A DNA stretch of 64,000 nucleotides from an uncultured Candidatus Saccharibacteria bacterium (GTDB lineage: Bacteria; Patescibacteriota; UBA1384; JAMDBS01; DAOVQR01): positions 7,963 to 71,962 of the forward strand of contig CAYZSW010000001.1 of NCBI GenBank assembly GCA_964481135.1. The letters run 5' to 3'. A program made the translations under genes and the position numbers. The stretch's first letter is position 1. Each line of letters begins with the position of its first letter. A model generated the notes under the pieces. That model was not told where the DNA came from, did not search any database, and saw only the letters and a program-made list of their open reading frames with translations. This document shows, piece by piece, positions 3,175 to 59,337 of this stretch.

Positions 3175-3365
3175 TATCCTTATATATAAATTTTCTAATT
3201 GCACCCTGCCTCGACGGCAGGCGGGTAATTGACCTAATTATTCTAAATAAATTTCAATGACTTAAATCCTAATTAGACATTAGAACTCGGTTCTTGTTTA
3301 GGTTAATTAGAATAATTAGGAACTAATTAGGTTAATTAAGAGTATCTTTAGAATATATTATATTT
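3175..3365. repeat. repeated leader element (TAGGTTAATTA and AATTAG motifs plus a GC hairpin), copy A
   Basis: Shares TTAGAATAATTAGGTCAATTACC and a GC hairpin with 49120-49326. Confidence 0.5.
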
Positions 3366-4252
3366 TATTTTCGGGTTTTAGTCCAATATGATTGTCCGTC
3401 AGAAATAATTTTAATAGTTGAATTTGCATCGGTTCTTAAAATTTTACTTCCCTGTTTTGTTAAATTATCTAATAAAATTTGATGCGGGTGACCAAATCTA
3501 TTTTTATCACCTACGCAAATTATTGAAATTTCCGGATTTATAATGTTGATAAATTCTTCTAATACCCCATTTTTTGATCCATGATGTGCAACTTTGTAAA
3601 TTTCTGAATCTAATTCATCTTTAAAAAGTTCGATAATCTCTTTCTGTGCCTCATCTTCAGCGTCTCCCGAAAACAATACATCAAAATCGTAATAACTTAA
3701 TTTACCAACAATCGAAGTGTTATTCAAGTTAGTAACACTTTTATCTTTATATGACGAATTGGGCCAAAAAACTTTAAACTTGGTATGATTATCTAGGTGA
3801 ATTTCATCGCCACTTCTTACAATTTTTGTTGGGATATTTTTTTGGTTTATAATTGTTAGAAATTCTAAATAATCTTTAGATGAAGATGTTGCGTCTGTTA
3901 AAATTACTTGACCAACATCAAATCTTTTAATTACTTCTATCAGCCCACTTACATGGTCAGAATGAGGATGTGTTAATAAAATAAAATCAATTTTTCTATC
4001 ATAAAAAGGCATTGCGTTTGCTAGCTCATATATTACTTTCGAACCAGGTCCTCCGTCTATCAACATATCTATATTATTAATTGTACGAATGTATATTGAA
4101 TCTCCTTGTCCGACATCTAAAAAATAAATGTTTAAATTATTGTCCGGCTTTTCAAATACTAAAGCCCAAACCAAAATAGCAAAAATAAGTAAAAATCCTA
4201 ATATATATTTAGTAATAATATTTTTTTTATTTTTAAATTTATTTTTAATCAT
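3365..4252 (-). CDS. membrane-anchored MBL-fold metallo-hydrolase (ComEC C-terminal-domain-like)
   Basis: N-terminal TM helix, then LIDGGPGSKV, HPHSDHVSGL and AHHGSKNG metallo-beta-lactamase motifs. It overlaps the upstream ComEC membrane ORF by 8 nt. Confidence 0.7.
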   Translation of the reverse strand: MIKNKFKNKKNIITKYILGFLLIFAILVWALVFEKPDNNLNIYFLDVGQGDSIYIRTINNIDMLIDGGPGSKVIYELANAMPFYDRKIDFILLTHPHSDHVSGLIEVIKRFDVGQVILTDATSSSKDYLEFLTIINQKNIPTKIVRSGDEIHLDNHTKFKVFWPNSSYKDKSVTNLNNTSIVGKLSYYDFDVLFSGDAEDEAQKEIIELFKDELDSEIYKVAHHGSKNGVLEEFINIINPEISIICVGDKNRFGHPHQILLDNLTKQGSKILRTDANSTIKIISDGQSYWTKTRK

Positions 4253-5756
4253 ACAAATATTTTTGTTTTAATTTATATTTCTTTTGGAAAAAGTAAATAA
4301 TAAGTACTAAAATTATATAATAGAAACTAATTGCTTGCCACGATGAGAGCGCTATGTTTATTTTTGATATTTGCAACTTAGAAAATTCATTTGTTATATA
4401 TATAATATATTTTAATATAATCCAAACTAAGATTGATATACATTTTGCTATCGTGAAATTTATAAAAGAAAAAATAAGCATCAAAAAGCTCAAAGGAATT
4501 ACTATTGGTAAAGCAGGTAATATTAACAAATTTACAACAGGAGAGATAATACTTATTTGGCCAAAATTTAATATAATAATTGGCATTGTAGCAATCTGAG
4601 CTGAAAATGTAGCGGACAATATATCTCGTAATATTTTTGGAACAAAGTTTAAGTACTTATTAAATAATAAATTAAATAATGGGCTTAGATAAACAATACC
4701 AAGAACTGCTAAAAATGAGAGTTGAAAACCAATATCATAGTGCAAGATAAGTGGATTTTGTAAGACCATCAAAAAAGCAATAAAAACTAAGACATTGACA
4801 ACGCTAGCTTTTCTACCAATTTGTCTTGCAAAAAGAAAAGAACCGGCCAAAATTGAAGCCCTAACAACTGAAGACCTTAACCCAGTCAGAATACAATAAA
4901 AAGATAATCCAGCAATACCTAAAATAAAAACCATTTTTTGGGGCCATCTTTTTGTAAAAATTTGATAATATTTCACTAAAATCGCAATATGTAATCCAGA
5001 AATTGCAATAATATGGGAAGTACCGGTAGCATTAAATGCATCAAGAATATTTTGCGGGATACCTCGTCTTAAACCCAAAATTAAACCATTTAAAAATGAA
5101 GCAAATGGTTCTGGAAGCAATCTCCTAATATTATTCGCAGACCTCGCCTTTATCTTATATATATTATTTAGTAATAAATTACCTCTGTTAATATCTATTA
5201 AGCTGGCTTTTGCATTTTTGACAATATAAAAAATATTATATCTGCTTAAATAATTTTTATAGTCGAAATCTTCAAATTTTTGAGGTTCCTCTATTTCCCC
5301 CTTAAATTGGATTATGTCACCATACTTATATTGAGGATATTTTTCTAAAGTTACTAAAACATTTCTACTAATAATATTATCATTCGCCTCAATTGCATTT
5401 GTGATATTAACTTTTAATTGCGTTTTTGTCTCTTTTTCGTCTGGCTCTTCATAGATAATACCTTCTAATTCAACTTCGCTACCTAACTCAATTTTTGGCG
5501 GTGTAATTTTTATTCTAAACCAATTGTAATATAACAAGCCACTAAAAAAAATTATCCCGCACACAAAAATTATTGTTAGTTCCTTTTGATAAAACGAAAA
5601 TATTAAAAAAACAAATATTAAAATTATACTAAAGACGTAAATTACATCAGTATTATCAATTATTATATATTTACCAAAAAATATTCCTGCAATTAAAATT
5701 AATTCAAAAACAATAAATATTTGCGATTTTGTTATTTTTGATAATTGCTTAAACAT
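4245..5756 (-). CDS. comEC: ComEC/Rec2-family competence membrane channel (N-terminal and core membrane part only)
   Basis: 503-aa polytopic membrane protein with the DUF4131-like N-terminal region and the competence domain. The MBL domain is encoded by the next ORF. Confidence 0.65.
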   Translation of the reverse strand: MFKQLSKITKSQIFIVFELILIAGIFFGKYIIIDNTDVIYVFSIILIFVFLIFSFYQKELTIIFVCGIIFFSGLLYYNWFRIKITPPKIELGSEVELEGIIYEEPDEKETKTQLKVNITNAIEANDNIISRNVLVTLEKYPQYKYGDIIQFKGEIEEPQKFEDFDYKNYLSRYNIFYIVKNAKASLIDINRGNLLLNNIYKIKARSANNIRRLLPEPFASFLNGLILGLRRGIPQNILDAFNATGTSHIIAISGLHIAILVKYYQIFTKRWPQKMVFILGIAGLSFYCILTGLRSSVVRASILAGSFLFARQIGRKASVVNVLVFIAFLMVLQNPLILHYDIGFQLSFLAVLGIVYLSPLFNLLFNKYLNFVPKILRDILSATFSAQIATMPIIILNFGQISIISPVVNLLILPALPIVIPLSFLMLIFSFINFTIAKCISILVWIILKYIIYITNEFSKLQISKINIALSSWQAISFYYIILVLIIYFFQKKYKLKQKYLYD

Positions 5757-6548: not shown

Positions 6549-6689
6549 ATAAACTACCTCCCAGCAAGCTACGAGATATAAATTGAAATAATTTATACGA
6601 AGCAACCTGCCTGCCTGTCTGCTGATAAGGCAGGCAAGGCAGGGCTTCGGGGAATTCACCCACTTGTCCGCCTTTGGCGGATTAAATTT
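6549..6689 (+). promoter_or_regulatory. conserved upstream element, copy 1: ATAAACTACCTC..GCAAGCT (6549-6575) and GGAATTCACCCACTTGTCCGCCTTTGGCGGATTAAATTT (6651-6689), split by a GC-rich hairpin insert
   Basis: A near-identical ~65-nt sequence recurs at 16143-16206. Both copies end ~30 bp before a sigma70-like promoter. Confidence 0.4.
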
Positions 6690-6718
6690 ATTTTTTATAA
6701 ACACAATGTAAAGTTAAC

Positions 6719-6904: not shown

Positions 6905-8800
6905 ATGTCTAAAGTTATTGGAATTGATTTAGGAACAACTAATTCAGTTGTAGCCGTCATGGAAGGTGGAAAGGCTAAAGTAATCCCAACTGCAGAAGGA
7001 GCTAACACTTGTCCTTCTATTGTTGCAGTTAATAAAAAAGGTGAAAGATTGGTTGGACAGGTAGCAAAAAGGCAATCTATAACAAACCCGGAAAATACAA
7101 TCTTTTCAGTTAAAAGATTTATCGGGCGAAAATTTGATGATGCTGAGTCAAAAAAAGATGAAGAACTTATGCCGTATAAGATGGTAGAGGCTAATGATGG
7201 TTCAATTAAAGTTAAAATGGGAGAAAAAGATTATACTCCACAAGAAATATCTGCTTTTATCTTACAAAAACTTAAAACTGACGCTGAAAGCTATTTAGGA
7301 GAAACGATTACCGATGCAGTTATCACAGTTCCTGCATATTTTAATGATTCTCAAAGAAAAGCTACAAAAGATGCTGGAAAAATTGCCGGACTTGAAGTTA
7401 AAAGAATTATTAATGAACCAACTGCAGCAGCACTTGCTTATGGGCTTGATAAGAAAAAAGAAGGTAAAATTGCAGTGTTCGACTTAGGTGGTGGAACATT
7501 TGATATTACAATTTTAGAAATTGGCGACGGAGTTTTTGAGGTTAAATCAACAAACGGAGACACTCACCTTGGAGGTGATGATTTTGATCAAAAAATTATG
7601 GACTATATTATTGATGAATTTAAAAAATCCGAAGCTATTGATTTAAAGAATGATAAAATGGCAATACAAAGAGTTAAAGAAGCAGCAGAAAAAGCAAAAG
7701 TAGAACTTTCAAGCGCACAAGAAACTGATATTAATTTACCATTTATTACAGCTGATGCGAATGGTCCAAAACATCTAAATATTAAATTAACTCGTCCAAA
7801 GTTGGAACAGCTTGTTGAAGATTTAGTCCAAAAAACCCGTAAACCGTGCGAAAAAGCAATTGATGATGCAAAAATTGATAAAAATGAAATTGTGGAAGTA
7901 ATACTGGTAGGCGGGATGACAAGGATGCCTTTAGTACAACAAACCGTTAAAGACATCTTTGGAAAAGAACCTTCTAAAGGAGTAAACCCTGATGAAGTCG
8001 TAGCGCTCGGTGCCGCAATTCAAGGTGGAGTTCTTTCAGGCGAAGTAAAAGATTTACTTTTACTTGATGTAACACCTTTGTCACTTGGTATTGAAACTCT
8101 TGGTGGAATTTGCACAAAATTAATTGAAAAAAATACAACAATTCCTGCAAATAAAAAACAAATTTTTTCCACAGCAGCAGATAACCAAACTTCGGTTGAA
8201 ATTCATGTTTTGCAGGGTGAAAGAGAAATGGCACAAGACAATAAAACTTTGGGTAGGTTTATGTTAGACGGAATACCTCCAGCTCCTAGAGGGGTACCGC
8301 AAATTGAAGTAAGTTTTGATATAGATGCAAACGGAATATTAAATGTTAAAGCTCAAGATAAAGCCACAGGCAAAGAACAAAAAATTACTATTACTGCATC
8401 AAGCGGACTGTCAGATGAAGAAGTTGAAAAAATGAAAAAAGATGCTGACGCACATCAAGAAGAAGATAAAAAGAAAAAAGAACAAATTGAAACTAAGAAT
8501 AAAGCTGAAAACTTAATTTATACTGCACAAAAAACTTTAAAAGATGCTGGTGATAAAGCTAATCCTGAAGACAAAAGAAAAGTTGAAGATATTATTATGC
8601 AACTGAAAAATGAAATGGAAAAAGACAATATTGAAGAAATCACGAAAAAAACTGACGAGCTTTCAACTGCAATACAAGAAATTGGAACTAAAATGTATCA
8701 ATCTGCAAATAAAGATAAAAAAGAAAACAACAAAAAAGAAAATGAATCAGAAAATAAGGAAAAAGAAAAAGAAGAAAAAAAAGATAGTGAAAAAAAATAA
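6905..8800 (+). CDS. dnaK: molecular chaperone DnaK (Hsp70)
   Basis: [18 protein letters not shown] and a GGMTRMP-type motif; 631 aa with a K/E-rich C-terminal tail. Confidence 0.97.
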
Positions 8801-10429: not shown

Positions 10430-10467
10430 AAATAATACAATTATTATATTCATATAAATGCACTTAA

Positions 10468-10500
10468 TTGTTTTTATGTTTAATCGACATGTGATATAAT
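10468..10500 (+). promoter_or_regulatory. extended -10 promoter (TGTGATATAAT)
   Basis: TGnTATAAT ~50 bp upstream of the 10546 start. The same TGATATAAT form recurs near 19410 and 44680. Confidence 0.4.
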
Positions 10501-12660: not shown

Positions 12661-12715
12661 CATTTTTGACCTCATCAAATTGTAAAAAGAAAATTATTAA
12701 TCATGCACTCAGGAA

Positions 12716-12790
12716 GGGCCTGTAGCTCAGTGGTAGAGCAGGAGCCTTTTAAGCTCTGTGTCATGGGTTCAATCCCCATCAGGCCCTCCA
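12716..12790 (+). tRNA. tRNA-Lys (anticodon UUU), CCA encoded
   Basis: GGGCCTG/TA/GCTC-AGTGGTA-GAGC/A/GGAGC-CTTTTAA-GCTCT/GTGTC/ATGGG-TTCAATC-CCCAT/CAGGCCC/T/CCA. Complete cloverleaf with a TTCAATC T-loop and anticodon TTT. Confidence 0.9.
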
Positions 12791-12829
12791 GATACAAGCC
12801 CTTCCTGAGTGCATATATAAATAAATTAA

Positions 12830-13223: not shown

Positions 13224-13295
13224 TTTTACTAACCTCCGGGGTTAGTAAAAGGTTTGAACCTGCAAATCTTTTGCAAACCCCGGAGGTTAGTAAAA
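13224..13295. repeat. 18-bp perfect inverted repeat (TTTTACTAACCTCCGGGG / CCCCGGAGGTTAGTAAAA) enclosing a 36-nt sub-hairpin
   Basis: Read directly. It sits in a ~400-bp stretch free of ORFs. Confidence 0.5.
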
Positions 13296-16142: not shown

Positions 16143-16206
16143 TAAACTACCTCACGGCAAGCTTCGCGGAATTCATCCACTTGTCCGCCTTGAGCAAATT
16201 AAATTT
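16143..16206 (+). promoter_or_regulatory. conserved upstream element, copy 2 (ATAAACTACCTCACGGCAAGCTTCGCGGAATTCATCCACTTGTCCGCCTTGAGCAAATTAAATTT)
   Basis: Matches the dnaK-upstream element. Followed ~20 bp later by TTTACA, 17 bp, ATAATA, and then the 16295 start. Confidence 0.4.
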
Positions 16207-16294
16207 TTAAAAGTTACTCTTTACAAATCACAAAAAAAACAGATAATATAAATAACATCTAATTGTATTTTAAAAATTAAAAGGAGGAAGTGTT

Positions 16295-35044: not shown

Positions 35045-35290
35045 AAAATCCGAAATACTAAACCCGAAATTTCTGCCCGCCGCTCAATCTCATCGAGAAA
35101 TAGGTGATTATTCCCCTTCTCGATATATGTTTCACCTCGGCAGGTGGGCAAAACAATATTGAAGCTCCGCGGGTTAAAAACCGCGGATTCCACTTAGGCG
35201 GAGCTGAAATCCGCCGTAGCGAAATCTTACCTTGCTTCATCCCCGGGCTAAAGCCCTGGAATTTCGCGAAGGCTGGATTAAAATTCTAAT
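35045..35290 (-). promoter_or_regulatory. GC-rich structured leader or candidate cis-regulatory RNA upstream of the GT4 gene
   Basis: ~250-nt island of much higher GC with nested perfect hairpins (CCGCGGTTTTTAACCCGCGG, GCTCCGC...GCGGAGC). No credible ORF. Confidence 0.3.
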
Positions 35291-42230: not shown

Positions 42231-42259
42231 TTTATCCCTCCCTATTGATAGAAGCAGAA

Positions 42260-42697
42260 TTACGCAGATAGTGACGCAGAAGTACGCGGAACTTTACTGC
42301 GAGCTTTATCATAAACTCTGCGTATTATTTCTAACTTTTCCGCTCCAAAATTTATTAATAATCCTAATTTATATTTTGAACCTTTTAAATATAACCAAAA
42401 TTGTCGCTTATCTTCTTTAGTTATAAATGGTTTGCATTTAAGTTCTAAAAGAATTTTATCATTTATTATTTTATCTGGTTGATATATTCCAACCTTTTTA
42501 TTATTGAAATAAATATTAATTTTTACTTGATTTTTTACTTTAAGATTTTTGTTTTCTAGAGCAATAGTTAATGCCCTGTCAACAATTTTTTCTTTAAATG
42601 CTCCACCAAAGCATTTCCATACTTCAAAACATGCTCCTCTGACCTTGTAAGTTATATCTTTATAAAGTAATTTGTCTTGATTCATATGCTTCTGCAT
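42260..42697 (-). CDS. GxxExxY family protein
   Basis: GACFEVWKCFGGAFKEKIVDRAL signature. Flanked by imperfect inverted repeats rich in CTGCGTAATT and ACGCAGATA. Confidence 0.7.
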   Translation of the reverse strand: MQKHMNQDKLLYKDITYKVRGACFEVWKCFGGAFKEKIVDRALTIALENKNLKVKNQVKINIYFNNKKVGIYQPDKIINDKILLELKCKPFITKEDKRQFWLYLKGSKYKLGLLINFGAEKLEIIRRVYDKARSKVPRTSASLSA

Positions 42698-42775
42698 TAT
42701 TCTGCGTAATTATCTGCGTTTATCGGCTTCTACAATTTATTAAATCAAAAATATTAATATTTCACAAGTGGATAA

Positions 42776-48001: not shown

Positions 48002-48134
48002 TGTCGGATGCCCCTCCCTGCACAGAACTACACAAATATGAACACGGATTATACACTAAAATTGATAGTTTCATCACAAGAGCAACTAATCAGTGTATTA
48101 TTTTGTGTTCCCGCCTGTGTGAATTTTGTGTGTT

Positions 48135-48596
48135 CTAATATATTTCTTCGATATTATTAATAATCAGAATTCCGCTTGCATTAAAAGTAGCTAAAGCTTC
48201 AACTTTACAGATGTATCTATTGTTATTAACACGGCTTACAATGTTTATGTTTTTTGGGTTATCCCCAGTTATATCTATTATAACACTTCCGTCATCAAAA
48301 ATTAAGTTTGTGCCAGCAAAAGATGGATCCCGCATAATTCTCAAAATGGATTCATCTATTGCTGATATTGCATTGTTGTAGGCCTCGTCAGATTTTTTTA
48401 AATTAAAACTCATATCAGTATCAATTAAAACATTTTGTAAAACAACAGTTACTGCCAACAAAGCAACGGCTAAAATTACCATAACAGCTACCATGGCAGA
48501 ACCCTTTTCACATACAGAACCACACAAAAATGAACACATATTTACACTCTTCTTATGTAACTTTAATTTATTTATTGATGGTAATTGATGTGTCAT
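48135..48596 (-). CDS. hypothetical membrane protein, possible minor pilin (PilX-like), start uncertain
   Basis: N-terminal hydrophobic helix but no canonical GFTLIE. An alternative start ~48494 (MVAVMVIL) follows an AAAAGGG RBS. The annotated start sits inside a CA-rich repeat. Confidence 0.35.
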   Translation of the reverse strand: MTHQLPSINKLKLHKKSVNMCSFLCGSVCEKGSAMVAVMVILAVALLAVTVVLQNVLIDTDMSFNLKKSDEAYNNAISAIDESILRIMRDPSFAGTNLIFDDGSVIIDITGDNPKNINIVSRVNNNRYICKVEALATFNASGILIINNIEEIY

Positions 48597-48624
48597 TTTG
48601 TGTTCCTATTTGTGTTGATTTGTG

Positions 48625-49119
48625 TTACTTAAGGTAGTATGTTGTTTCAAATTCCTGCGAAATATCACGCTTACCCTCAACCTCTCCAATAAAATTAATA
48701 TTTATTTTAATTTGTATACTAGGCCTGCCTCCGACATTGGCAATTTTACGAAATTCTAAACTTTCTACTTTAACTTGGTTTGAGGTAACATTATCAAAAT
48801 CACCGCTTTCTGATCGAATTAATGTACCCGATATCAAACCATAACTCACATCTCCAGCTATTAAATTATTTGTTGGGTTGTTATCGTTTGGCACATCGAC
48901 ACTACTTGCATTTTGCAAATCACGAATAATTAACTCTGTGACAAACCTACCATTTTTTTGAATTTCAAGTCGTGCAGTTTCTTCTTGAGAAAAATAACTG
49001 GCAGTAATTAATAAGTTTGTAATTATTAAAAGAATTATCGATAAAAGCCCCATATATATAATGGTTTCTATGAGGGTGAAACCACCTTCAAATTTTTTTC
49101 CACTTTTATATTTTTTCAT
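48625..49119 (-). CDS. pilin-like protein with prepilin-type N-terminal cleavage/methylation domain
   Basis: KFEGG / FTLIETIIYMGLLSIILLI. Confidence 0.65.
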   Translation of the reverse strand: MKKYKSGKKFEGGFTLIETIIYMGLLSIILLIITNLLITASYFSQEETARLEIQKNGRFVTELIIRDLQNASSVDVPNDNNPTNNLIAGDVSYGLISGTLIRSESGDFDNVTSNQVKVESLEFRKIANVGGRPSIQIKININFIGEVEGKRDISQEFETTYYLK

Positions 49120-49326
49120 AATTAAATAAAATTTCTAATTTTTCTAATTGATCTAATTATTCTAAACAAATACCAAACTATAATTTCTAATGTCTAAATG
49201 TATTTTCTCTTTTTTGTTATTGGTGTTTGGGTCATTTTTTAGGTTAATTACCTGCCCGCCATTAGCTATCGCTTCAAGCGATTAGCAGGCGGGGAAATTA
49301 GGTTAATTAGGTTAATTTCTACTCGC
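49120..49326. repeat. repeated leader element, copy B
   Basis: GAAATTAGGTTAATTAGGTTAATTTC, a CCTGCCCGCC...GGCGGG hairpin and TTAGAATAATTAGATCAATTAG, ending in CAATTAGAAAAATTAGAAATTT before an ATG. Confidence 0.5.
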
Positions 49327-51251
49327 TATGGTGAATAATTCACCGACACATCGTAAACAACCGGTGTTTTGCTATTCTCAAGTGTTGTTAAATATATTTT
49401 ATATTTTATATATCTTCCTAAAGAATGTGAAAGAGGAATTGCTTCTCCATCTGGATTGGTAAATCGCGTTGCTTCTGTTCCGTCTGGTCCTACAAAATTC
49501 CATGTTGCATTATCAGTATTAGTAGCAATTTGGAATTCTACATTTGTTACTCCGGGATCGATCAATTCTGTCCAAAAAATCCGATTAAATGAAACTTCAT
49601 CACCTGCATCAAAAGTACTTGATATATATTGCCCAGACGGAAAGTAACCAGTTTCTGCGATAGCTGAAAGTCGAAACATTGTATCTTGATTATTAAATAC
49701 ATTCCAATTTGTACCGGCATTATTGCTTTCTGTATATCTTGCATCTAAACCCAGATAATTAATATCATTGTCTGGGCTTCGGTCTAAATTTTCTGCGTGT
49801 TCTATGTGATATGATCGATTATGTGCAGTTCCAGGTGATTTTAGATAAAATCTATATTGCCTTCCTTCTATAAAAGCAATTTTTGGGTCAAGTGAAATTT
49901 CATGTAGTTGATAATCCATAGTAATATCTGTTCTTGTAACAAAAATTTCGTTAAATAAAATAGTATTGGTTGTCATATCTTCAATAACTAAATATAAATC
50001 ATCTTGAGGCTGAGCACCAACACTTTTTTTAACATAAATTGCCATTCTATTAAAAAACTCTGTACCCTCTTTGTAAGTAAAAATTTCTCCTTTATAAAAA
50101 TTTCCGTAAACATCTTTGTCTCGTGCTTCATGATATGGATTTCCTTCGGCTTCTGGGTTGCTATCAGTAAATAATAAAATATAAACAGGCGTATTATTAA
50201 CATCTGACCAGTTTGCGCCACCATTACTAGTCCAGCGGATCATAAGATTTAAATCATCTGCACTAGTTAAAGGCACAACCAAGTTTAAAGGATTTAAAGT
50301 TCTAAATATAATTGATCTTCCGGCATTTATTTGACCTGAATTATGCTCTATTACTAGGTGATAAATATTACCAGCTGTAATAGAAACATTTTCATTTAAA
50401 TTAAGTTCATGCCAGCCAGTGTTATTAGTTTGAAAATCTTTATAACCCTCATTATTACCTCCCAACCAATTACCACTTGGACTACCGTTATTATCTGATT
50501 GCAGTCCATATCTATATGTAGGAGTTTGATTTTGATGAGTAGAAGAAATGTAAATTCTAAGCGCTCTTACCTCTTTTGTATTTTGAGCAGTAAAACGAAA
50601 AGAAACTTTTTTACTTGAATTATCTAATGCATCTGTTTGGCTAGTACCAAAAACAGAGAATCTGTTACCAACTTGCTTGCCTTCACCTTGTCCATAAGCA
50701 AGCTTAATTTCACCACCTTGATCGTTTGTAACTTCTGTATCATTTACAGTCCCATCTATAAAATCATTATAAGTTGTTTCAATCCAATTAGCATTGTTTT
50801 GATAACGAGTCAGATATATTTCCTTAGATATAGATAAATTACGGGGTTTTTGCCAAGAAACAGAAATAATAAATTTTTTTGTCGATGGGTCCTCAATTCC
50901 ACTTTCTGATATTTCTCCGCTAACCGCATTACGGTAAACTGATTCGATAGAGATGCTTCTAGTAAAATTATCATCGATATTTTCTACACCATCTGCTAAA
51001 TTCCACACTCCGTTATTATTTATAATACGAGCGGGATATGTATGATAAACTAAGTCATTCCACGACCGCTCGTGTATTGAATAAAGAGCATTAACTGCTT
51101 CTTGAACATATTCTTCTGCTTGAGTTTGTTTTAATGAATTAAACTGAGCTTGTGAAATATCTACAAAAAGACCAATAACTGAACTAATTATTACACTAGC
51201 AATAGCAGTAGCAATAATAAGCTCAATTAGAATTTGACCTTTATTTGACAC
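49326..51251 (-). CDS. large (~640 aa) pilin-like protein, candidate tip or PilY1/PilV-like adhesin subunit
   Basis: The ORF-track N-terminal extension translates a CA-rich leader. A GTG ~51251 gives MSNKG / QILIELIIATAIASVII, a classic short prepilin leader, followed by 600 aa of beta-rich sequence. Confidence 0.5.
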   Translation of the reverse strand: MSNKGQILIELIIATAIASVIISSVIGLFVDISQAQFNSLKQTQAEEYVQEAVNALYSIHERSWNDLVYHTYPARIINNNGVWNLADGVENIDDNFTRSISIESVYRNAVSGEISESGIEDPSTKKFIISVSWQKPRNLSISKEIYLTRYQNNANWIETTYNDFIDGTVNDTEVTNDQGGEIKLAYGQGEGKQVGNRFSVFGTSQTDALDNSSKKVSFRFTAQNTKEVRALRIYISSTHQNQTPTYRYGLQSDNNGSPSGNWLGGNNEGYKDFQTNNTGWHELNLNENVSITAGNIYHLVIEHNSGQINAGRSIIFRTLNPLNLVVPLTSADDLNLMIRWTSNGGANWSDVNNTPVYILLFTDSNPEAEGNPYHEARDKDVYGNFYKGEIFTYKEGTEFFNRMAIYVKKSVGAQPQDDLYLVIEDMTTNTILFNEIFVTRTDITMDYQLHEISLDPKIAFIEGRQYRFYLKSPGTAHNRSYHIEHAENLDRSPDNDINYLGLDARYTESNNAGTNWNVFNNQDTMFRLSAIAETGYFPSGQYISSTFDAGDEVSFNRIFWTELIDPGVTNVEFQIATNTDNATWNFVGPDGTEATRFTNPDGEAIPLSHSLGRYIKYKIYLTTLENSKTPVVYDVSVNYSP

Positions 51252-51333
51252 AGAATTACACAAATTGGAACACAAATTACCACACCTATTAAGTTGATGT
51301 GTATTTCTGTGTTCTGTTTTGTGTTTTTCTGTG

Positions 51334-51858
51334 TTAATTAACATCAATTACTCCCAACTTATTAATTGTAAAATTTCTAGTTTCGCCGGAGCTTAACTCA
51401 GATAATGAAAAATTTTTATTTTGCTCATCGTAATTCCTTACATTACCAAAAACTTTCTCAAAGACAATTGTCGAATTATCTGGTAAATTTGAATCTAATG
51501 ATAAATTGTCTGGTAAATTTACATTGATATTATAATTATCACTCGGGTTATAAATAATTCCCCGATATAAAACAATTTTATTTTCAACTGAATCAAAATA
51601 TATGCTAAAATTTTCGCCCGACTCAGCTGTATCGCAATTTTGGGTACACATTCTACTCATTGCCTGATTCTGTGCCTGATATATAGTAGATAATATTTGA
51701 GTCGAAAAAGAATCCAAACTGTTGGTTCGTTGAAAATTTAAATAAGAAACCCACGATCCAGCTAAAATAATACCAAAAATTCCTATCGTCACTAATAGTT
51801 CAATTAAAGTAAAACCTTTTTTAACTTGTAGCTGGTAGCTTTTTAGCTTATTAGACAA
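51334..51858 (-). CDS. pilin-like protein (prepilin-type N-terminal domain)
   Basis: TTG start after GGAGGGGC. KKG / FTLIELLVTIGIFGIILA. Confidence 0.65.
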   Translation of the reverse strand: MSNKLKSYQLQVKKGFTLIELLVTIGIFGIILAGSWVSYLNFQRTNSLDSFSTQILSTIYQAQNQAMSRMCTQNCDTAESGENFSIYFDSVENKIVLYRGIIYNPSDNYNINVNLPDNLSLDSNLPDNSTIVFEKVFGNVRNYDEQNKNFSLSELSSGETRNFTINKLGVIDVN

Positions 51859-51948: not shown

Positions 51949-52407
51949 CTATTTTAAATGCTCTTTAATCTTTTCTACAACTTGATTTGGTGTAAGGTTT
52001 GCTTTTACTAAATAATCATTTGCGCCAAGTTTTTTTGCTCTATCAATATCAGTTTGCTGGCCAAGATTAGAAAATACTACTACTGGTTTTTTGGCGTTCG
52101 GCCAACTACTGGCACGAAGTTTTTCTAATATTTCAAATCCATCTACTTTTGGAAGCATCAGGTCTAAAAGTATAATACTATAATCATTTTTCTCTAATTT
52201 TTCTAAAGCTTGTTGTCCATCAAGAGCATTATCAACTTCAAAACCTTCCATTGAACATTTTGTTGAATACATTTTTACTAGTAATTCATCGTCTTCTATA
52301 ATTAATAATTTACCACCATTTTTTTCCAATTGTGCTGATTGATTAGCTGTATTGTCTGCTGGCTGTGGTTGACCCTGAGGTTGAACTGGTATTTGTTGAT
52401 TTTGCAT
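51949..52407 (-). CDS. single-domain response regulator (CheY-like receiver only) with a Q/P-rich N-terminal tail
   Basis: REC-domain motifs (LLIIEDD, DLMLP, receiver lysine region). Start chosen at MQNQQ after GAAAGGAG. Confidence 0.7.
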   Translation of the reverse strand: MQNQQIPVQPQGQPQPADNTANQSAQLEKNGGKLLIIEDDELLVKMYSTKCSMEGFEVDNALDGQQALEKLEKNDYSIILLDLMLPKVDGFEILEKLRASSWPNAKKPVVVFSNLGQQTDIDRAKKLGANDYLVKANLTPNQVVEKIKEHLK

Positions 52408-52456
52408 AATTATACTCCTTTCTTTCACACAGAACTACACAAATAGGAATACAAAT

Positions 52457-52882
52457 TTACACTTTAGTTAAAAACGGTTTTCTATCATTGGTGTAAATGA
52501 TTCTTTTGACATATAGTTTTAGTGTAGAAAAATTTACTAAATAACCTATTTCATATTTACTATTTCTTAAATAATGATAAAGTTGTATTTCGTCTTGTTT
52601 AGTAGTGAATCTTGACGATTTCAATTCTATAATAATTTTATTATCGATAATTACATCTGGTTTATAACTTCCTACTTTTTTACCAGTCTGATTAGAATAA
52701 ATACTAATTAATTTTTCTTTTTCAATTTTTATTTGTTTATTTGTTAAATATTCAATCAATAAATTCTGATAAATTGATTCTTTGTGACCAGGTCCGTATT
52801 CCTTTCTTATTTCGAAAAAACATCCTTGAACAATATAGCTTAATTCCTTGTAAAGGAACAGCTTCTTATCTGGTGCGTTCAT
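52457..52882 (-). CDS. GxxExxY family protein
   Basis: [29 protein letters not shown]. Start MNAPDKK follows AGGAACACAA. Flanked by ~20-bp imperfect inverted repeats at 52425-52465 and 52870-52920. Confidence 0.7.
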
Positions 52883-53023
52883 TTGTGTTCCTGTTTGTGT
52901 TGTTTTGTGTTGTAACCAACGGTAATGTAAAGCTAAAATTGGAGCCATGCCCTTCGCGACTCTCTACCCATATTTTACCACCACATCCTTCAACTATCAA
53001 TCGGGAAATGTAAAGGCCTAAAC

Positions 53024-55201
53024 CTAATCCTGACCCTGACCTTCGATAACTTTTTTAGTTCCACCAGATACTTGATAATACTTAGTAAATAATGCCTCTT
53101 GTTTTTCTTCGGAAATACCTTGTCCAGAATCAGAAATAGAAAACTGGGCGAATTTATCTTTTAATTGTATATCAAATTTAACCCAACCACTTTTAGTATA
53201 TTTTATAGCGTTATCTATTAGATTAGTAAGAACTTGCTGAATTTTATCAGAATCAGTATAAACAAAAAGTTGCTCAGGAATTTCCTCAAGCTTAAATTCA
53301 AGACCTTTTTTCTCGGCTATTGGAGATATCTGTTTAATTAAAGTTTTTACAATGGGAATAATATCTATATTTTTTGGCTGAATAGTAATTTTCCCTTTTT
53401 CTATACGAGATGAAGTTAAAAAATCATTAACCATGCGAATTAATCTTTCGGAAGCAGATTGAGTTTCTTTAAGTGGTTCGCGTAAAGTTTCTGGAATTTG
53501 CCCAAAGTCACCATTTAAAATCATATCATTATATCCCTTAATGGCTGTCATTGGAGTTCTTAGATCGTGTGCGGCAATATTTAAAAATTCATCTTTCATT
53601 TTTGCAAGTTCTCTTTCTTTTGAAACATCATGAAACACTACCACGCAACCTATAATTTTATTGTTATTATCTCGTAGAGGAGAAGCACTATCTGCAACTG
53701 GAATTTTTTTATTATATTTTGTAAGTAGGTAAGTATGATTTGTCATATAGGTAATCGTGCCACTAGTCATAGCGTCTCGGACAAATTTATCATTTATTGA
53801 ATTGTCTTTTTCTAAATAAAATTTAAGTATATCTTTGTATACTTTGCCAACTGCTTCTTCTTTAGTATATCCAGAAATTTTTTCTGCAATAGAGTTAAAC
53901 ATAATTATCTTTTCATCTAGTCCAATTACAAATACAGCATCTCCAATAGAAGAAAGTATTGCTTGAATTTTATTTCGTTCGTGTTCAGTTTTTAGTTTTT
54001 CCTCATTTACATCTTCTAAAATATTTAAAATTGCCTTTTGTTGATTTTGCATTTTTTGATCGTTTAGTTTAATCTCTTTTGTTTGCTCTTCTACTTTTTT
54101 ATCAATTTCGGCACGAGATACTTTAATAGCACTAGTTAAATTATCAATTTCTCTTGATAGGTCTCCGATTTCATCTTTAGAATTATTACCAACCTTGTAA
54201 TCCAAATCTCCTTTTTGAATAATTTTTATGCCTTTATGCAAATTTTCAATTGGTTTAGAAAGAATGCGAGCAACAAATAGAGCTACCGCAAAAGAAAATA
54301 ATAAATAAACTAAACTAATAACTATCAAAATATTTATTTCATGATTAATTGGCGCAAAAACTTCCTTTTGATCAATCTTAACAACTAGTCCCCAGCCGGT
54401 GTGGTCAATATAACGAGACGCAGAAAAAACTTTTTCGTTACGATAATCAGCTAAATCTGTAAAGTAATCTTCGTTATTTAAAAGTGCCTGAACAAGTGGT
54501 ATGTGTGTATCTAATTTAGTTACTTTTACACCGGGTGGATAAGGATGTCTGGTTTCTAAAAAATACTCAACATCATTGTTTTCATCTAACCTAGCAATTA
54601 TTGTTTCTCCTGTTTCACCCAACCCAGAGTAATCATTCATAATATTAATTATTTCTTCTGGACTTGTTTGAACAATAGACACACCTAACACATTTTCATC
54701 TTTTTGTATTGGGCCGGCAAGATAAAACCAATTTTCTTTATTTTCTTCGTCTTTTACAAATGTAATATAATTTTTTTCCTTGCCAAATTCAAAATATTCT
54801 TCGCTAGAAAAATTTTTGTTTTCTTGATCTTTTTCACTTGAAGCAATAACTTTACCATCTTTATCTGTTATCCAAAGAGCGTTATAATCTGTACTTGATT
54901 TTTTAGCATCTTCTAATCGTCGCGAGAGGTCATCTTTGTCTATTGAATCAGGATTGTTATAATAATCCTGCATTAAATCAATAACCCCCACTCTTGAAGT
55001 AAAAATTTTAATTCGTTCTAAATTAATATTAATAAGATTTTCAACTCTTGATTCTTGTAAATCTGCTATTACATTTAATTTTTCCTCGGTATTATCTAAA
55101 GCATTTTTTCGCATCTCAAAATAACCATAAAAAATGGATATCAAAAAAGAGAAAAATGCTATACAAACTATGCTAATAATAATTCTTGTTCTGATTTTCA
55201 T
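53024..55201 (-). CDS. sensor histidine kinase (TM, extracytoplasmic domain, HAMP, PAS, HisKA, HATPase_c); 3' end frameshifted in an A6 run
   Basis: [14 protein letters not shown]-box and [10 protein letters not shown]1 box. The ORF stops at GQGQD, but the G2 box [41 protein letters not shown] continues in another frame down to ~52876. Confidence 0.75.
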
Positions 55202-55252
55202 AATAATTATATTGGTAACGCGTAATGGGTAATAAGTAACGCGTAATTAATA

Positions 55253-55789
55253 TTATCTAATATTTTTTCTTGCCGCATACATTCTTTCAGCTAAACCACC
55301 ATTTTGTAAAAAATCTTTTTCTAAACTCTGAAGCTGGCGATCTAATAGATAGTTAGCTTGGTGAATTAAACAAATTATTGAATTTGCTGCAGATTCTGGA
55401 TCTGACATATAGGTCATATAAGTCTCATAAGACCTATTCGACCTATAAGATAATTTTCTAATTTCCTGAATTCGTGAATCTTCTTTGTTCCAAAGTTTTA
55501 ATTTTTTCTGACGCAAAAAATCCAAATAATCTTCTAAAAGTTCTTCTAAACTTGCCCTAGCCACACCAATAAGTTTTATTTCAGATTTTTTTGATGTACC
55601 TGAAACTTGACTTCCTTCAACAATATTTTGCTTTCCACTTCTTGCGGCTTGGACCATTTGATCACGCGTCCTAGAAAATTTACTAACATATTTATTACAA
55701 AATTGGTCTGTCAAATCGTAAACTATAACCGAATTTTGATAGGATTTTAACTTTTTGTATCCTCCATGAATAGATATAAAATTTGACAT
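55253..55789 (-). CDS. four-helix-bundle protein (TIGR02436 / 23S rRNA intervening-sequence protein family)
   Basis: KSYQNSVIVYDL...GKQNIVEGS pattern; 178 aa. Confidence 0.65.
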   Translation of the reverse strand: MSNFISIHGGYKKLKSYQNSVIVYDLTDQFCNKYVSKFSRTRDQMVQAARSGKQNIVEGSQVSGTSKKSEIKLIGVARASLEELLEDYLDFLRQKKLKLWNKEDSRIQEIRKLSYRSNRSYETYMTYMSDPESAANSIICLIHQANYLLDRQLQSLEKDFLQNGGLAERMYAARKNIR

Positions 55790-55887
55790 TTAATTTTTCC
55801 TTAAATTTTATTTATTCTACTATCTTACCTACTTGCCTACAGGTCTTACTATTTATCTACCATCCTACTGGCCTACTTTCTACTAGC

Positions 55888-56208
55888 CTACTTGTCTAAT
55901 TTCTCCACTAACTTCATAATTTCTTCTTGGTGTTTTTTTACTACTTCCTGATTTCTAAATTTTTTGGCAAACTGGGCTAATTCTCTTAGGGAATTTATGA
56001 TTGATTCTTTGGTTGGATTTTCAAAATCCCCTCCGGAATCAACGAATGCTTTTTTAACAATTTCTACACAGTATTCTTTTTCCATAGATTCCTGATTAGA
56101 AACTCCTGCATCGCTACAATGTGCCTGGCTAAAACATTCGCTTATTGCATCGCGCACCATAAGTGGTGTAATTTTTTCATTTAAATCAACTCCGTAAATT
56201 TTTGTCAT
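55888..56208 (-). CDS. hypothetical protein
   Basis: 106-aa acidic ORF. Leader has (A)GTAGG repeats. Confidence 0.4.
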   Translation of the reverse strand: MTKIYGVDLNEKITPLMVRDAISECFSQAHCSDAGVSNQESMEKEYCVEIVKKAFVDSGGDFENPTKESIINSLRELAQFAKKFRNQEVVKKHQEEIMKLVEKLDK

Positions 56209-57631: not shown

Positions 57632-57694
57632 ATTTGCTCCGCAAAACTTATAACTAATATTTCATAACTCATAACCATATCTAATAACTTAAAA

Positions 57695-58084
57695 CTATTT
57701 TTTGCCTTTTAAAGTCAATAAACTAGAAGCAAGCATTTTGGTTATTTGTTGACATTCGTCTAATAACGGTTCTGCCTCTTTTTTCTGAATTAATTTTGAA
57801 TCTTTCAATAAACTTAGCCAATACAATGTTTCATTGGCAGATTTTAAAGAAATATCATAATATTTAATAAATTCTTTTTTTGAACTAGATGATTTTGCTT
57901 CTACAATATTTGCTCCAATAGATGTTGATGATCTTAAAAGTTGATCTGAAACTATCCAATACATTTTTTTATTAGGCAAGCTATTTATAAACTTGATAAT
58001 GGATAATGAAAAATTATACGCTCTAATTTTTACATTAGAAGATTTAACATTTGAGTTATGATTATGAGTTATGAGTTTTAACAT
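57695..58084 (-). CDS. four-helix-bundle protein (TIGR02436 family)
   Basis: YNFSLSIIKFINSL...RSSTSIGANIVEAKS. Its ATG lies 3 nt after the PAS gene stop. ATAACTCAT-type inverted repeats occur at both ends. Confidence 0.65.
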   Translation of the reverse strand: MLKLITHNHNSNVKSSNVKIRAYNFSLSIIKFINSLPNKKMYWIVSDQLLRSSTSIGANIVEAKSSSSKKEFIKYYDISLKSANETLYWLSLLKDSKLIQKKEAEPLLDECQQITKMLASSLLTLKGKK

Positions 58085-58089
58085 ATGAA

Positions 58090-59337
58090 TTATTTTCCTT
58101 TCAACCTTTCAATCTCTTTTTTAAGCTCTATCATTTTAAGTTCGCGACCCACCATAAGATTATTCATTTTTTCTGTAAATTGCGTTTGTTTTTTTAATTT
58201 TTCTTGCGCTTCCATTTCTTTTGAAATATCAAAAATAAATCCTTCTAGGTGTTTAATATTTCCCTTATTATCTTTTATTGCAAGTCCCTTTTCATGAACC
58301 CAAATATTTTTTTCATCTTTACTTATGATACGATAATCAATTTCCCAGTATCTATTTTCTTTTACTGCCTTGGAAATTCCTTCTGATACTAGACTTCTAT
58401 CTTGTTTGTAAATTACACTTTCATAAGTTCTAATTTTATTTTCTACAAAATCACTTGCCTTATATCCACACAACTGCTCAATATAATTACTTACAAACAT
58501 CATGGTCCAATTTTTATCAAACTTACATTTGTAAATAATTCCCGGGATATTATTAACTAAATTTGAAAATTCTTTTTGAAACTGCTCAAGCTTAATTTTA
58601 TTTAGCTTATTTTCATTAATATCTCTATCTATTCCTCTATATCCGGTGGATCCATCTTGTTTTTTTACTGGTAGACCATAACTTAAAATCCAAAATATTT
58701 TTCCATTTTTATCTAAAAGACGATTTTCTAAATTGATTGTCTTTTTACCTTCTTTAATAAAAGCTAAGCCAATTTTTTTAATTTCTTCTTTGTCTGGAGA
58801 CAAATCATAAAAATGTTTTTTGCCAATGACCTCTTCTGGCTTATATCCCAAAACTTGTTCTATAGAAGGACTTACATATGTATACAAACCATTTTCATCA
58901 ACTTCCCAAATAAAAGATTTGCTTTCACTAACTAAACTTTCGTATGCCTTATTTAATTCAAGAATTTTTTGTTCGTTTTTAATTCTATTGGTAATATCGT
59001 GAGCTAAACTTAAAATTGCTTTTTTGCCATGAAAGTCAATAACTTGGGAATTAATTTCTACTGGAATTTCCCTGCCATTACTTGTAACATGAGCCGAACG
59101 AAATACTAACTTTCCTTTGGATTTTAACTCCTGGATTCTTTGGGGCACCATTTTAGCATATTTAGGTGAATCAATTTTCTGTGGGCCAATTTCTAATAAC
59201 TGTTCTTTGGTGTATCCTAACCGACTGCAAGCTTCTTTATTGACATCTAAAAAATTACCCTCTAAGTCGTGGATAAATACAGCTTCATTTAAATTTTCGA
59301 ATATTATTTGATATTTATCATCCATTTTTGCTTTCAT
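58090..59337 (-). CDS. multi-PAS sensor protein lacking a kinase domain
   Basis: Three PAS/PAC-like repeats, then a coiled coil ending MVGRELKMIELKKEIERLKGK. Confidence 0.6.
   Translation of the reverse strand: MKAKMDDKYQIIFENLNEAVFIHDLEGNFLDVNKEACSRLGYTKEQLLEIGPQKIDSPKYAKMVPQRIQELKSKGKLVFRSAHVTSNGREIPVEINSQVIDFHGKKAILSLAHDITNRIKNEQKILELNKAYESLVSESKSFIWEVDENGLYTYVSPSIEQVLGYKPEEVIGKKHFYDLSPDKEEIKKIGLAFIKEGKKTINLENRLLDKNGKIFWILSYGLPVKKQDGSTGYRGIDRDINENKLNKIKLEQFQKEFSNLVNNIPGIIYKCKFDKNWTMMFVSNYIEQLCGYKASDFVENKIRTYESVIYKQDRSLVSEGISKAVKENRYWEIDYRIISKDEKNIWVHEKGLAIKDNKGNIKHLEGFIFDISKEMEAQEKLKKQTQFTEKMNNLMVGRELKMIELKKEIERLKGK

Follow-up and report, generated by a model that had tools for sequence, protein, structure and literature searches.

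Cassette D, a segment of ~491 bp lying between a histidine kinase gene and a response regulator gene, is probably a mobile insertion cassette of the intervening-sequence (IVS) type, accompanied by gene-less, MITE-like derivatives. It was found in a stretch of 64,000 nucleotides, referred to here as the window. Four observations carry this reading, namely the insertion itself, the occurrence of one arm type with related ORFs at unrelated loci, the presence of cargo-less copies in the window, and the existence of relatives inserted in frame in other genes. The label D is used for the gene-bearing cassette at 52426..52916, and A, B, C, and E for the cargo-less hairpins in the window.

Structure of the cassette

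The limits of cassette D were set by comparing the kinase–regulator junction with that of the cassette-free orthologous locus L063. All genes around the cassette lie on the minus strand, and the region is composed of the following features:

52426..52916 (-), whole cassette D, ~491 bp, composed of the 5' arm, the GxxExxY ORF, and the 3' arm
52872..52910 (-), 5' arm of D (sense), four heptamers whose 10/12/10-nt spacing is visible in the sequence itself
52427..52465 (-), 3' arm of D, complements of the 5' heptamers, again at 10/12/10 nt
52457..52885 (-), gene for a GxxExxY protein of 142 aa with a PD-(D/E)XK nuclease fold, E36, D77, E87, and K89 invariant
53024..55201 (-), histidine kinase (dCache-HAMP-PAS-HisKA-HATPase), truncated because 1 nt is missing in the region of the G2 box
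52866..53000 (-), displaced kinase C-terminus, last 44 codons, running through the right (5') arm
51949..52407 (-), single-domain response regulator, 70% identical to the L063 regulator

A preliminary description of this DNA had placed an inverted repeat at the two ends of the GxxExxY gene, and this placement was borne out. The arm core ACACAAATAGGAATACAAA is located at 52437-52455 (+) and the opposite core ACACAAACAGGAACACAAA at 52882-52900 (-), with 17/19 positions in agreement, and the core written as ACACAAAYAGGAAYACAAA has its two sites at these same positions. When the 3' flank was reverse-complemented and aligned with the 5' flank, the score stood at z = 9.1 relative to 200 shuffles. 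When extended, the arms cover 52427-52474 and 52863-52910, that is, 48 nt with 75% complementarity. Each arm is an array of four ACACAAA-like heptamers and not a plain palindrome: the 5' arm, in the sense direction, carries ACACAAA at 52904-10, 52894-900, and 52882-88 and ACGCACC at 52872-78, and the complements in the 3' arm are situated at 52427-33, 52437-43, 52449-55, and 52459-65. The claim that the arms enclose only the 142-aa GxxExxY gene also held, with a single ORF (52457-52885) inside. Both its start and its stop codon fall within the arms. The ATG (52883-52885) shares nucleotides with the last part of the third heptamer and has a Shine-Dalgarno-like AGGA 6 nt ahead of it in the 5' arm, and the TAA (52457-52459) is found inside the innermost unit of the 3' arm.

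The Rfam comparison provided no meaningful family for the arms, the only match being a sub-threshold one of hairpin C to a plant microRNA precursor; over the window, the sole Rfam match was one tRNA, and no intron family was found. Promoter and terminator scans gave signals at chance level.

The encoded GxxExxY protein

Genes of the GxxExxY family are also present in rRNA IVSs. The ORF of D corresponds to PF13366 and not to the IVS protein family PF05635. The 142-aa protein matched TIGR04256 with 96.1 bits (cutoff 35) and PF13366 (PDDEXK_3) with 94.6 bits (cutoff 22), and its motif residues (G33-E36-Y39, P76-D77, and E87-L88-K89) were invariant or nearly invariant across 30 homologues. The predicted structure has the nuclease fold with the catalytic residues intact. 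Membership in a defense system or phage family was considered and rejected, as the PADLOC and PHROGs families gave only marginal Cas4-like matches (E >= 0.0013) and no PHROG match; the Cas4-like matches appear because the nuclease fold is common to both. The function of the GxxExxY family was listed as unknown in a 2012 survey (PMC3424549).

Exact-protein look-up provided no match for the 142-aa ORF or for the kinase, and did match a 163-aa gene call. Going by a G+C content of 30% and by the few named relatives, which are mostly Microgenomates or Parcubacteria, the DNA probably comes from a Patescibacteria (CPR) bacterium.

Insertion into the kinase–regulator operon

Three orthologous operons were available for comparison, and all of them lack the hairpins. 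The kinase is 52% identical in L001, where it overlaps the regulator gene by 35 nt, 61% identical in L063, with a gap of 14 nt to the regulator, and 39% identical in L064, with a gap of 9 nt. At the cassette-free junction of L063, the kinase ends in ...LPLIKNK* and the regulator ATG follows 14 nt on. L001 resembles the window further downstream, with a 174-aa pilin-like gene and a ~675-aa gene. Judged from these comparisons, cassette D is an insertion between the kinase and regulator genes. In the window, the Shine-Dalgarno site of the regulator, GAAAGGAG (52415-52422), begins 4 nt past the 3' arm of D.

The search for empty sites that had been proposed along with the preliminary description was successful in one respect: empty orthologous sites exist, but no filled/empty polymorphism was present among six identical assemblies. 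The locus of D is 100% identical in these six independent assemblies, without such polymorphism within the population, and the empty sites are orthologous, not allelic. By inspection, none of the five window copies A–E shows a target-site duplication flanking its outer ends.

The right arm had been described as overlapping the frameshifted 3' end of the kinase, and the kinase fragment at 52866-53000 indeed crosses it. This fragment is 81% identical to the last 36 residues of the L063 kinase, after which it gains a tail of 16 residues encoded by the 5' arm of D. The frameshift corresponds to a 1-nt deletion located ~130 nt upstream of the arm and shows no visible tie to it. Since the sequence is identical in six independent assemblies, the frameshift is considered real. 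A programmed frameshift was rejected, given that there is no slippery site and that a 1-nt deletion relative to the orthologues suffices. The deletion (53024-53045) affects the codon preceding GLGLGLY (G2 box) and leaves the ATP-lid and the C-terminal part out of frame. The kinase is probably a real pseudogene, which leaves an orphan receiver protein.

In the cassette-free operon L001, two intergenic spacers (8378-8407 and 10437-10476) consist of tandem heptamer-like repeats (TTTAAGA x4; AGAGTAAG-type) situated right before start codons. These spacers may be solo arm remnants.

Cargo-less hairpins of the same arm family

At <=3 mismatches, the arm core of D had 8 sites in the window versus 0.21 expected. 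The sites corresponded to four cargo-less hairpins, each of which fills an intergenic junction of co-directional genes:

48017..48138 (-), hairpin A, cargo-less, between two genes, 103.9 bits, arms 76% and 81% identical to those of D
48509..48630 (-), hairpin B, cargo-less, 111.7 bits, arms 91% and 79% identical to those of D
51245..51339 (-), hairpin C, cargo-less, between two pilin-like genes, 90.9 bits
62387..62507 (-), hairpin E, cargo-less, most diverged copy, 109.9 bits

In the alignment of the five elements A–E, the mean column identity was 67% and a structure of 28 pairs was common to all. A covariance model run over the 64-kb window detected no further copies beyond A–E. Further copies of the arms, which the preliminary description had proposed to look for, were in this way found without cargo at four other junctions of the window, but not at most junctions. 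The outcome named there as a refutation did not arise. Hairpin B retains AGGAACACAAAATG and GTGTAAAT, the counterparts of the start and stop regions of D, as would be expected had the ORF been lost through an internal deletion. On account of such start- and stop-region remnants, the cargo-less hairpins look like internally deleted, MITE-like derivatives.

Outside the window, locus L065 bears two cargo-less hairpins of the D arm family beside a related cassette. One of them, complete, is situated at 841-938, directly 3' of the related GxxExxY ORF, a layout that suggests nested or adjacent insertion. In the window, the ORFs of two pilin-like genes (48135-48596 and 49326-51347) continue upstream, in frame and without a stop, across hairpins B and C. 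Automated gene calls consequently make the N-termini too long, and the true starts of these two genes are likely to lie at or past the 3' arm.

Other cassettes in the window

Three more units with arms or arm-like flanks were identified in the window:

42249..42732 (-), second GxxExxY cassette with ACGCAGA-type arms, ORF 42260-42697, 44% identical to D, z = 6.1
57645..58091 (-), four-helix-bundle cassette (PF05635, 23S rRNA IVS protein), z = 4.4
55205..55890 (-), four-helix-bundle plus suffix-domain gene upstream of the kinase, gene 55253-55789, flanked by repeat arrays

The ORF of the second GxxExxY cassette is built like the in-frame embedded modules described below, with the addition of its own start and stop. 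The arms of the four-helix-bundle cassette are composed of tandem CATAACT/AGTTATG heptamers, and its PF05635 ORF is located at 57695-58084; PF05635 itself is thus carried at two neighboring units, this one and 55253-55789. The latter was not counted as a hairpin cassette, as the complementarity of its arm-like flanking arrays was not significant (z = 0.8), and the gene is missing from the orthologous loci L001 and L063. In L063, a different four-helix-bundle gene of the IVS protein family (4114-4394) is situated right after the response regulator and is preceded by five tandem nAGATTT heptamers; it occupies a different junction of the same operon as the window cassette. A scan of viral contigs with the four-helix-bundle protein identified no relatives.

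Relatives in other genomes

A search for the D subfamily yielded 351 clusters (E <= 1e-5), of which the top 120 were without exception free-standing proteins of 123-186 aa. At L090, L092, and L065, nuclease relatives with 72-83% protein identity are located between unrelated genes, and their arms are of the ACACAAA type and 64-82% identical to those of D. The arms and the ORF therefore occur together at unrelated loci in other organisms. Inverted arms were found with z ~2 to 9 in 19/20 cassettes.

In metagenome loci, relatives of the two GxxExxY proteins of the window also form modules inside other genes, in frame, without their own start or stop and with ACGCGGA/ACGCAGA arms. Such modules were identified in LepA (L066, L068, L069, L077, and L079), RecG (L067, L070, L075, and L076), and GatB (L071 and L073), and protein searches added GT4/GT1 glycosyltransferases, RtcB, LeuRS, asparagine synthase (AsnB), and a Wzy-type ligase, where intact host domains flank the module on either side. 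The embedded modules keep the catalytic motifs. Approximately 62 of the best 150 cluster representatives reach at least 240 aa, a count that is biased by clustering and is not a frequency. The occupied sites in LepA, RecG, and GatB are conserved, and empty versions exist among the orthologues. Searches of the embedded relatives detected PDDEXK_3 and host domains only, with no intein (Hint) domain or self-splicing intron. The in-frame insertions found at the same site of LepA, RecG, and GatB may be ancient and passed on by vertical descent instead of reflecting repeated homing.

Two individual LepA cases deserve mention. The LepA fragment P0242, which has an embedded module, contains two copies of the host segment VEGVILNLID, one on each side of a solo 3'-arm-like peptide; a second insertion, or an imprecise repair, at this LepA site may have left the duplication as a scar. 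Between the near-identical module-bearing LepA loci L077 and L079, the latter has a stop codon inside the module that would truncate LepA.

Proposed mechanism and alternative explanations

The favored explanation starts from a promoter-less GxxExxY nuclease gene with an array of four heptamers on each side, the two arrays being inverted relative to each other; this unit would have landed in the ~15-nt junction between the kinase stop and the ribosome-binding site of the regulator. The heptamer arrays at the two termini would be recognized by the protein that the element itself encodes, and through homing or transposition the nuclease could bring about the spread of the element as DNA. Expression of the cassette would come from read-through of the host operon. 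In the transcript, the arms are predicted to pair in an imperfect stem of 30-40 bp that would bury the Shine-Dalgarno sequence and the AUG of the nuclease, and the same stem would leave the ribosome-binding site of the regulator free. Against this explanation stand the absence of target-site duplications at A–E, the uniform sequence of the six assemblies, the lack of a significant inverted repeat around 55253-55789, the possible vertical inheritance of the LepA, RecG, and GatB modules, and the fact that no member of the nuclease family is known to be active.

The role as recognition sites is suggested by the design of the arms. In GxxExxY cassettes, a spacing of 10/11-12/10 nt is kept in both arms whatever the heptamer, and 73/113 spacings measure 10-12 nt. 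Four-helix-bundle cassettes have tandem heptamers with a period of 7, namely CATAACT in the window, nAGATTT x5 in L063, and GTCAAAT in L083, and the Coxiella IVS likewise has tandem GACAGAT heptamers with a period of 7 (PMC4990558). Because the arm design co-varies with the encoded protein, the best explanation would be that the protein recognizes its own arms.

The main alternative, which follows the preliminary description, is that the arms form an RNA stem cut by RNase III, which would separate the kinase and regulator mRNAs and release the cassette RNA, so that the element would be mainly an RNA-processing site. The folding check of 52400-52950 proposed in the preliminary description did predict a long-range stem, on both strands, and the energy of the arm duplex (z = -3.4 sense and -7.0 antisense) was equaled by none of 300 dinucleotide shuffles, with eight ordinary small genes of the window as a control giving z between -1.1 and +0.2. 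In the family A–E, 91% of the cells pair, and the Coxiella IVS, which has the same build, is cut in mid-stem by RNase III (PMC4990558). Moreover, 12/13 free-standing cassettes are co-oriented with both neighbors, a bias which an RNA-level constraint fits at least as well as a DNA-level one and which, together with the absent promoter and terminator signal, favors a transcription-linked constraint. Four sequence tests nevertheless argue against selection for pairing of the sense-strand RNA. Among the arm mismatches of 20 cassettes, transitions that keep a G-U pair on the sense strand were not enriched (79, versus 109 antisense-only transitions and 132 transversions); the antisense duplex of D is far stronger than the sense duplex (-58 versus -38.8 kcal/mol); covariation in the five-copy family was weak, as 34/500 shuffles reached the observed score; and in CGCRGA-type arms, the variable heptamer position did not covary between presumed partners, in a register that is crude. 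In addition, the spacers between heptamers in ACGCGGA-type relatives are mostly non-complementary, which leaves helices of 7-8 bp broken by internal loops, and cleavage would destroy the LepA, RecG, and GatB mRNAs that contain in-frame relatives. We consider RNase III processing as the main role to be unlikely, though it deserves more credit than the two explanations that follow.

The hairpins could also belong to the host, as REP-like intergenic elements that stabilize mRNA or couple translation, the nuclease gene having been captured once in one loop. Such an origin would suit the fact that 4/5 window copies are gene-less and all of them sit exactly between co-directional genes, as well as the absence of the arms from ~185,000 representative genomes (source genome outside the set), where a scan with the arm core gave 60 matches, all isolated and attributable to chance, and none in clusters. 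It is difficult to reconcile with the nuclease relatives that carry the same arm type at unrelated loci elsewhere, with the other GxxExxY subfamilies that have arms of their own in the same 10/12/10 layout, with the remnants of the ORF start and stop kept in cargo-less copies, and with orthologous operons free of such hairpins, and we regard it as improbable. An integron-type gene cassette, in which the hairpins would be attC-like recombination sites, is suggested by promoter-less co-directional genes separated by imperfect palindromes of 90-120 nt. However, the arms are present on both sides of the ORF and not at the 3' end only, the order of the flanking genes is kept in relatives without hairpins, and the arm ends read AACACA.../...TTCTGTGT instead of the RYYYAAC/GTTRRRY of attC core sites; this origin is very improbable indeed.

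A broader version of the mobile-cassette explanation may be proposed tentatively, as a possibility that we hold to be less probable than the mobility of D itself. Hairpin-armed GxxExxY and four-helix-bundle cassettes might constitute one unrecognized class of mobile elements, in which the nuclease and the bundle protein would each recognize arrays of their own, with 10-12-nt spacing and with tandem 7-nt units, respectively. Such elements would settle in rRNA genes, at operon junctions, and, in frame, within essential protein genes, and the 23S rRNA IVSs of the classical type would then be only those members that reside in rRNA.

Comparison with known elements

The closest counterparts of D are the 23S rRNA IVSs of Coxiella, Leptospira, and others. 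The likeness to ORF-bearing IVSs put forward in the preliminary description holds for the architecture, as both have terminal inverted repeats around a small ORF in ~430-490 nt. In the Coxiella IVS, repeated heptamers extend up to the start codon and a weak ribosome-binding site lies inside the stem (PMC4990558), and D has both traits in common with it. In contrast, D is situated between protein-coding genes (kinase and regulator) and not in a 23S rRNA helix, its cargo is a PD-(D/E)XK nuclease and not a four-helix-bundle protein, and its heptamers are 10-12 nt apart instead of tandem. rRNA insertions of CPR bacteria carry PF05635 ORFs (PMC11270868). In rRNA, a stem of this kind is excised by RNase III.

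The D family also resembles MITEs with an autonomous partner, which are short intergenic hairpins of 90-120 nt inside operons whose inverted repeats are common to a gene-bearing copy. It differs in that target-site duplications are absent, the gene is not a recognized transposase, and the copies so far number a handful. The Correia elements of Neisseria, an example of MITEs, are co-transcribed and cut by RNase III. Rickettsia palindromic elements, reportedly described by Ogata et al. in 2000 as selfish DNA tolerated between genes and in frame in protein-coding genes, are similar to the relatives of D in being inserted in frame in host proteins (here LepA, RecG, and GatB); the Rickettsia elements are gene-less, whereas the relatives of D carry ~130 codons of intact nuclease. 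With homing endonucleases and inteins, these relatives have in common a nuclease gene in frame at conserved sites of essential genes, but there is no Hint domain or self-splicing intron, and the window copy is intergenic. Inverted heptamer arms are not known as a feature of homing elements. Finally, in IS10 and IS50, translation of the transposase is inhibited by fold-back, and D is comparable in that, in read-through transcripts, the outer end of the element is predicted to bury the ribosome-binding site and the start codon of its own gene (AGGA and AUG in the predicted stem of D).

Significance and annotation

ORF-bearing IVSs are known in rRNA, including that of CPR bacteria (PMC4990558; PMC11270868), and the origin, mobility, and ORF function of rRNA IVSs were called unclear in a 2016 study of Coxiella (PMC4990558). 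In the full-text literature searched, which covers few subscription journals or curators' notes, no description of hairpin-armed operon cassettes, of cargo-less derivatives, or of in-frame insertion was found. The locus offers a tractable handle on the origin of IVSs, with one gene-bearing and four gene-less copies that have the same arms in one genome, and it adds clean empty sites in orthologous operons and in-frame relatives in LepA, RecG, GatB, and others. If the existence of one unrecognized class is true, it would account for the source of IVSs and the purpose of their ORFs. If the nuclease recognizes its own heptamer arrays, a new mechanism for the spread of gene cassettes in reduced-genome bacteria would be at hand, and it would also make sense of numerous proteins in metagenome-assembled genomes that seem too large or fused, and of the partial entries labeled 'GxxExxY protein' there. 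For annotation purposes, hairpin-armed cassettes should not be taken as members of the operon. ORFs that run through the arms also lead to inflated gene calls, in this case a 163-aa call over the 142-aa gene and a kinase tail of 16 residues.

Other repeats in the window

Additional repeats were observed in the window. A GC-rich block of ~45 nt (CTTCGsGGAATTCAyCCACTTGTCCGCCTT..ATTAAATTT) is present at ~6645-6690 and ~16165-16210 (+), without an Rfam match; both blocks belong to GC-rich islands that fold strongly and precede the plus-strand genes at 6905 and 16295, and there may be a weaker third copy near 35185-35275. Between two pilin-like genes, the segment 49120-49325 contains a GC-rich hairpin (CCCCGCCTGC...GCGGGCAGG) with direct TAATTAACCTAA repeats on either side, and its TAACCTAA motif is found again at 3298, 3327, 33930, 38849, and 40027; this hairpin may represent another family of intergenic elements. 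An intergenic inverted repeat of 33 nt, 91% complementary and with a 6-nt loop, is located at 13224-13295. Lastly, an inverted repeat of 25 nt with 92% complementarity (12703-12814) encloses the tRNA-Lys gene (12716-12790) and extends into part of it.
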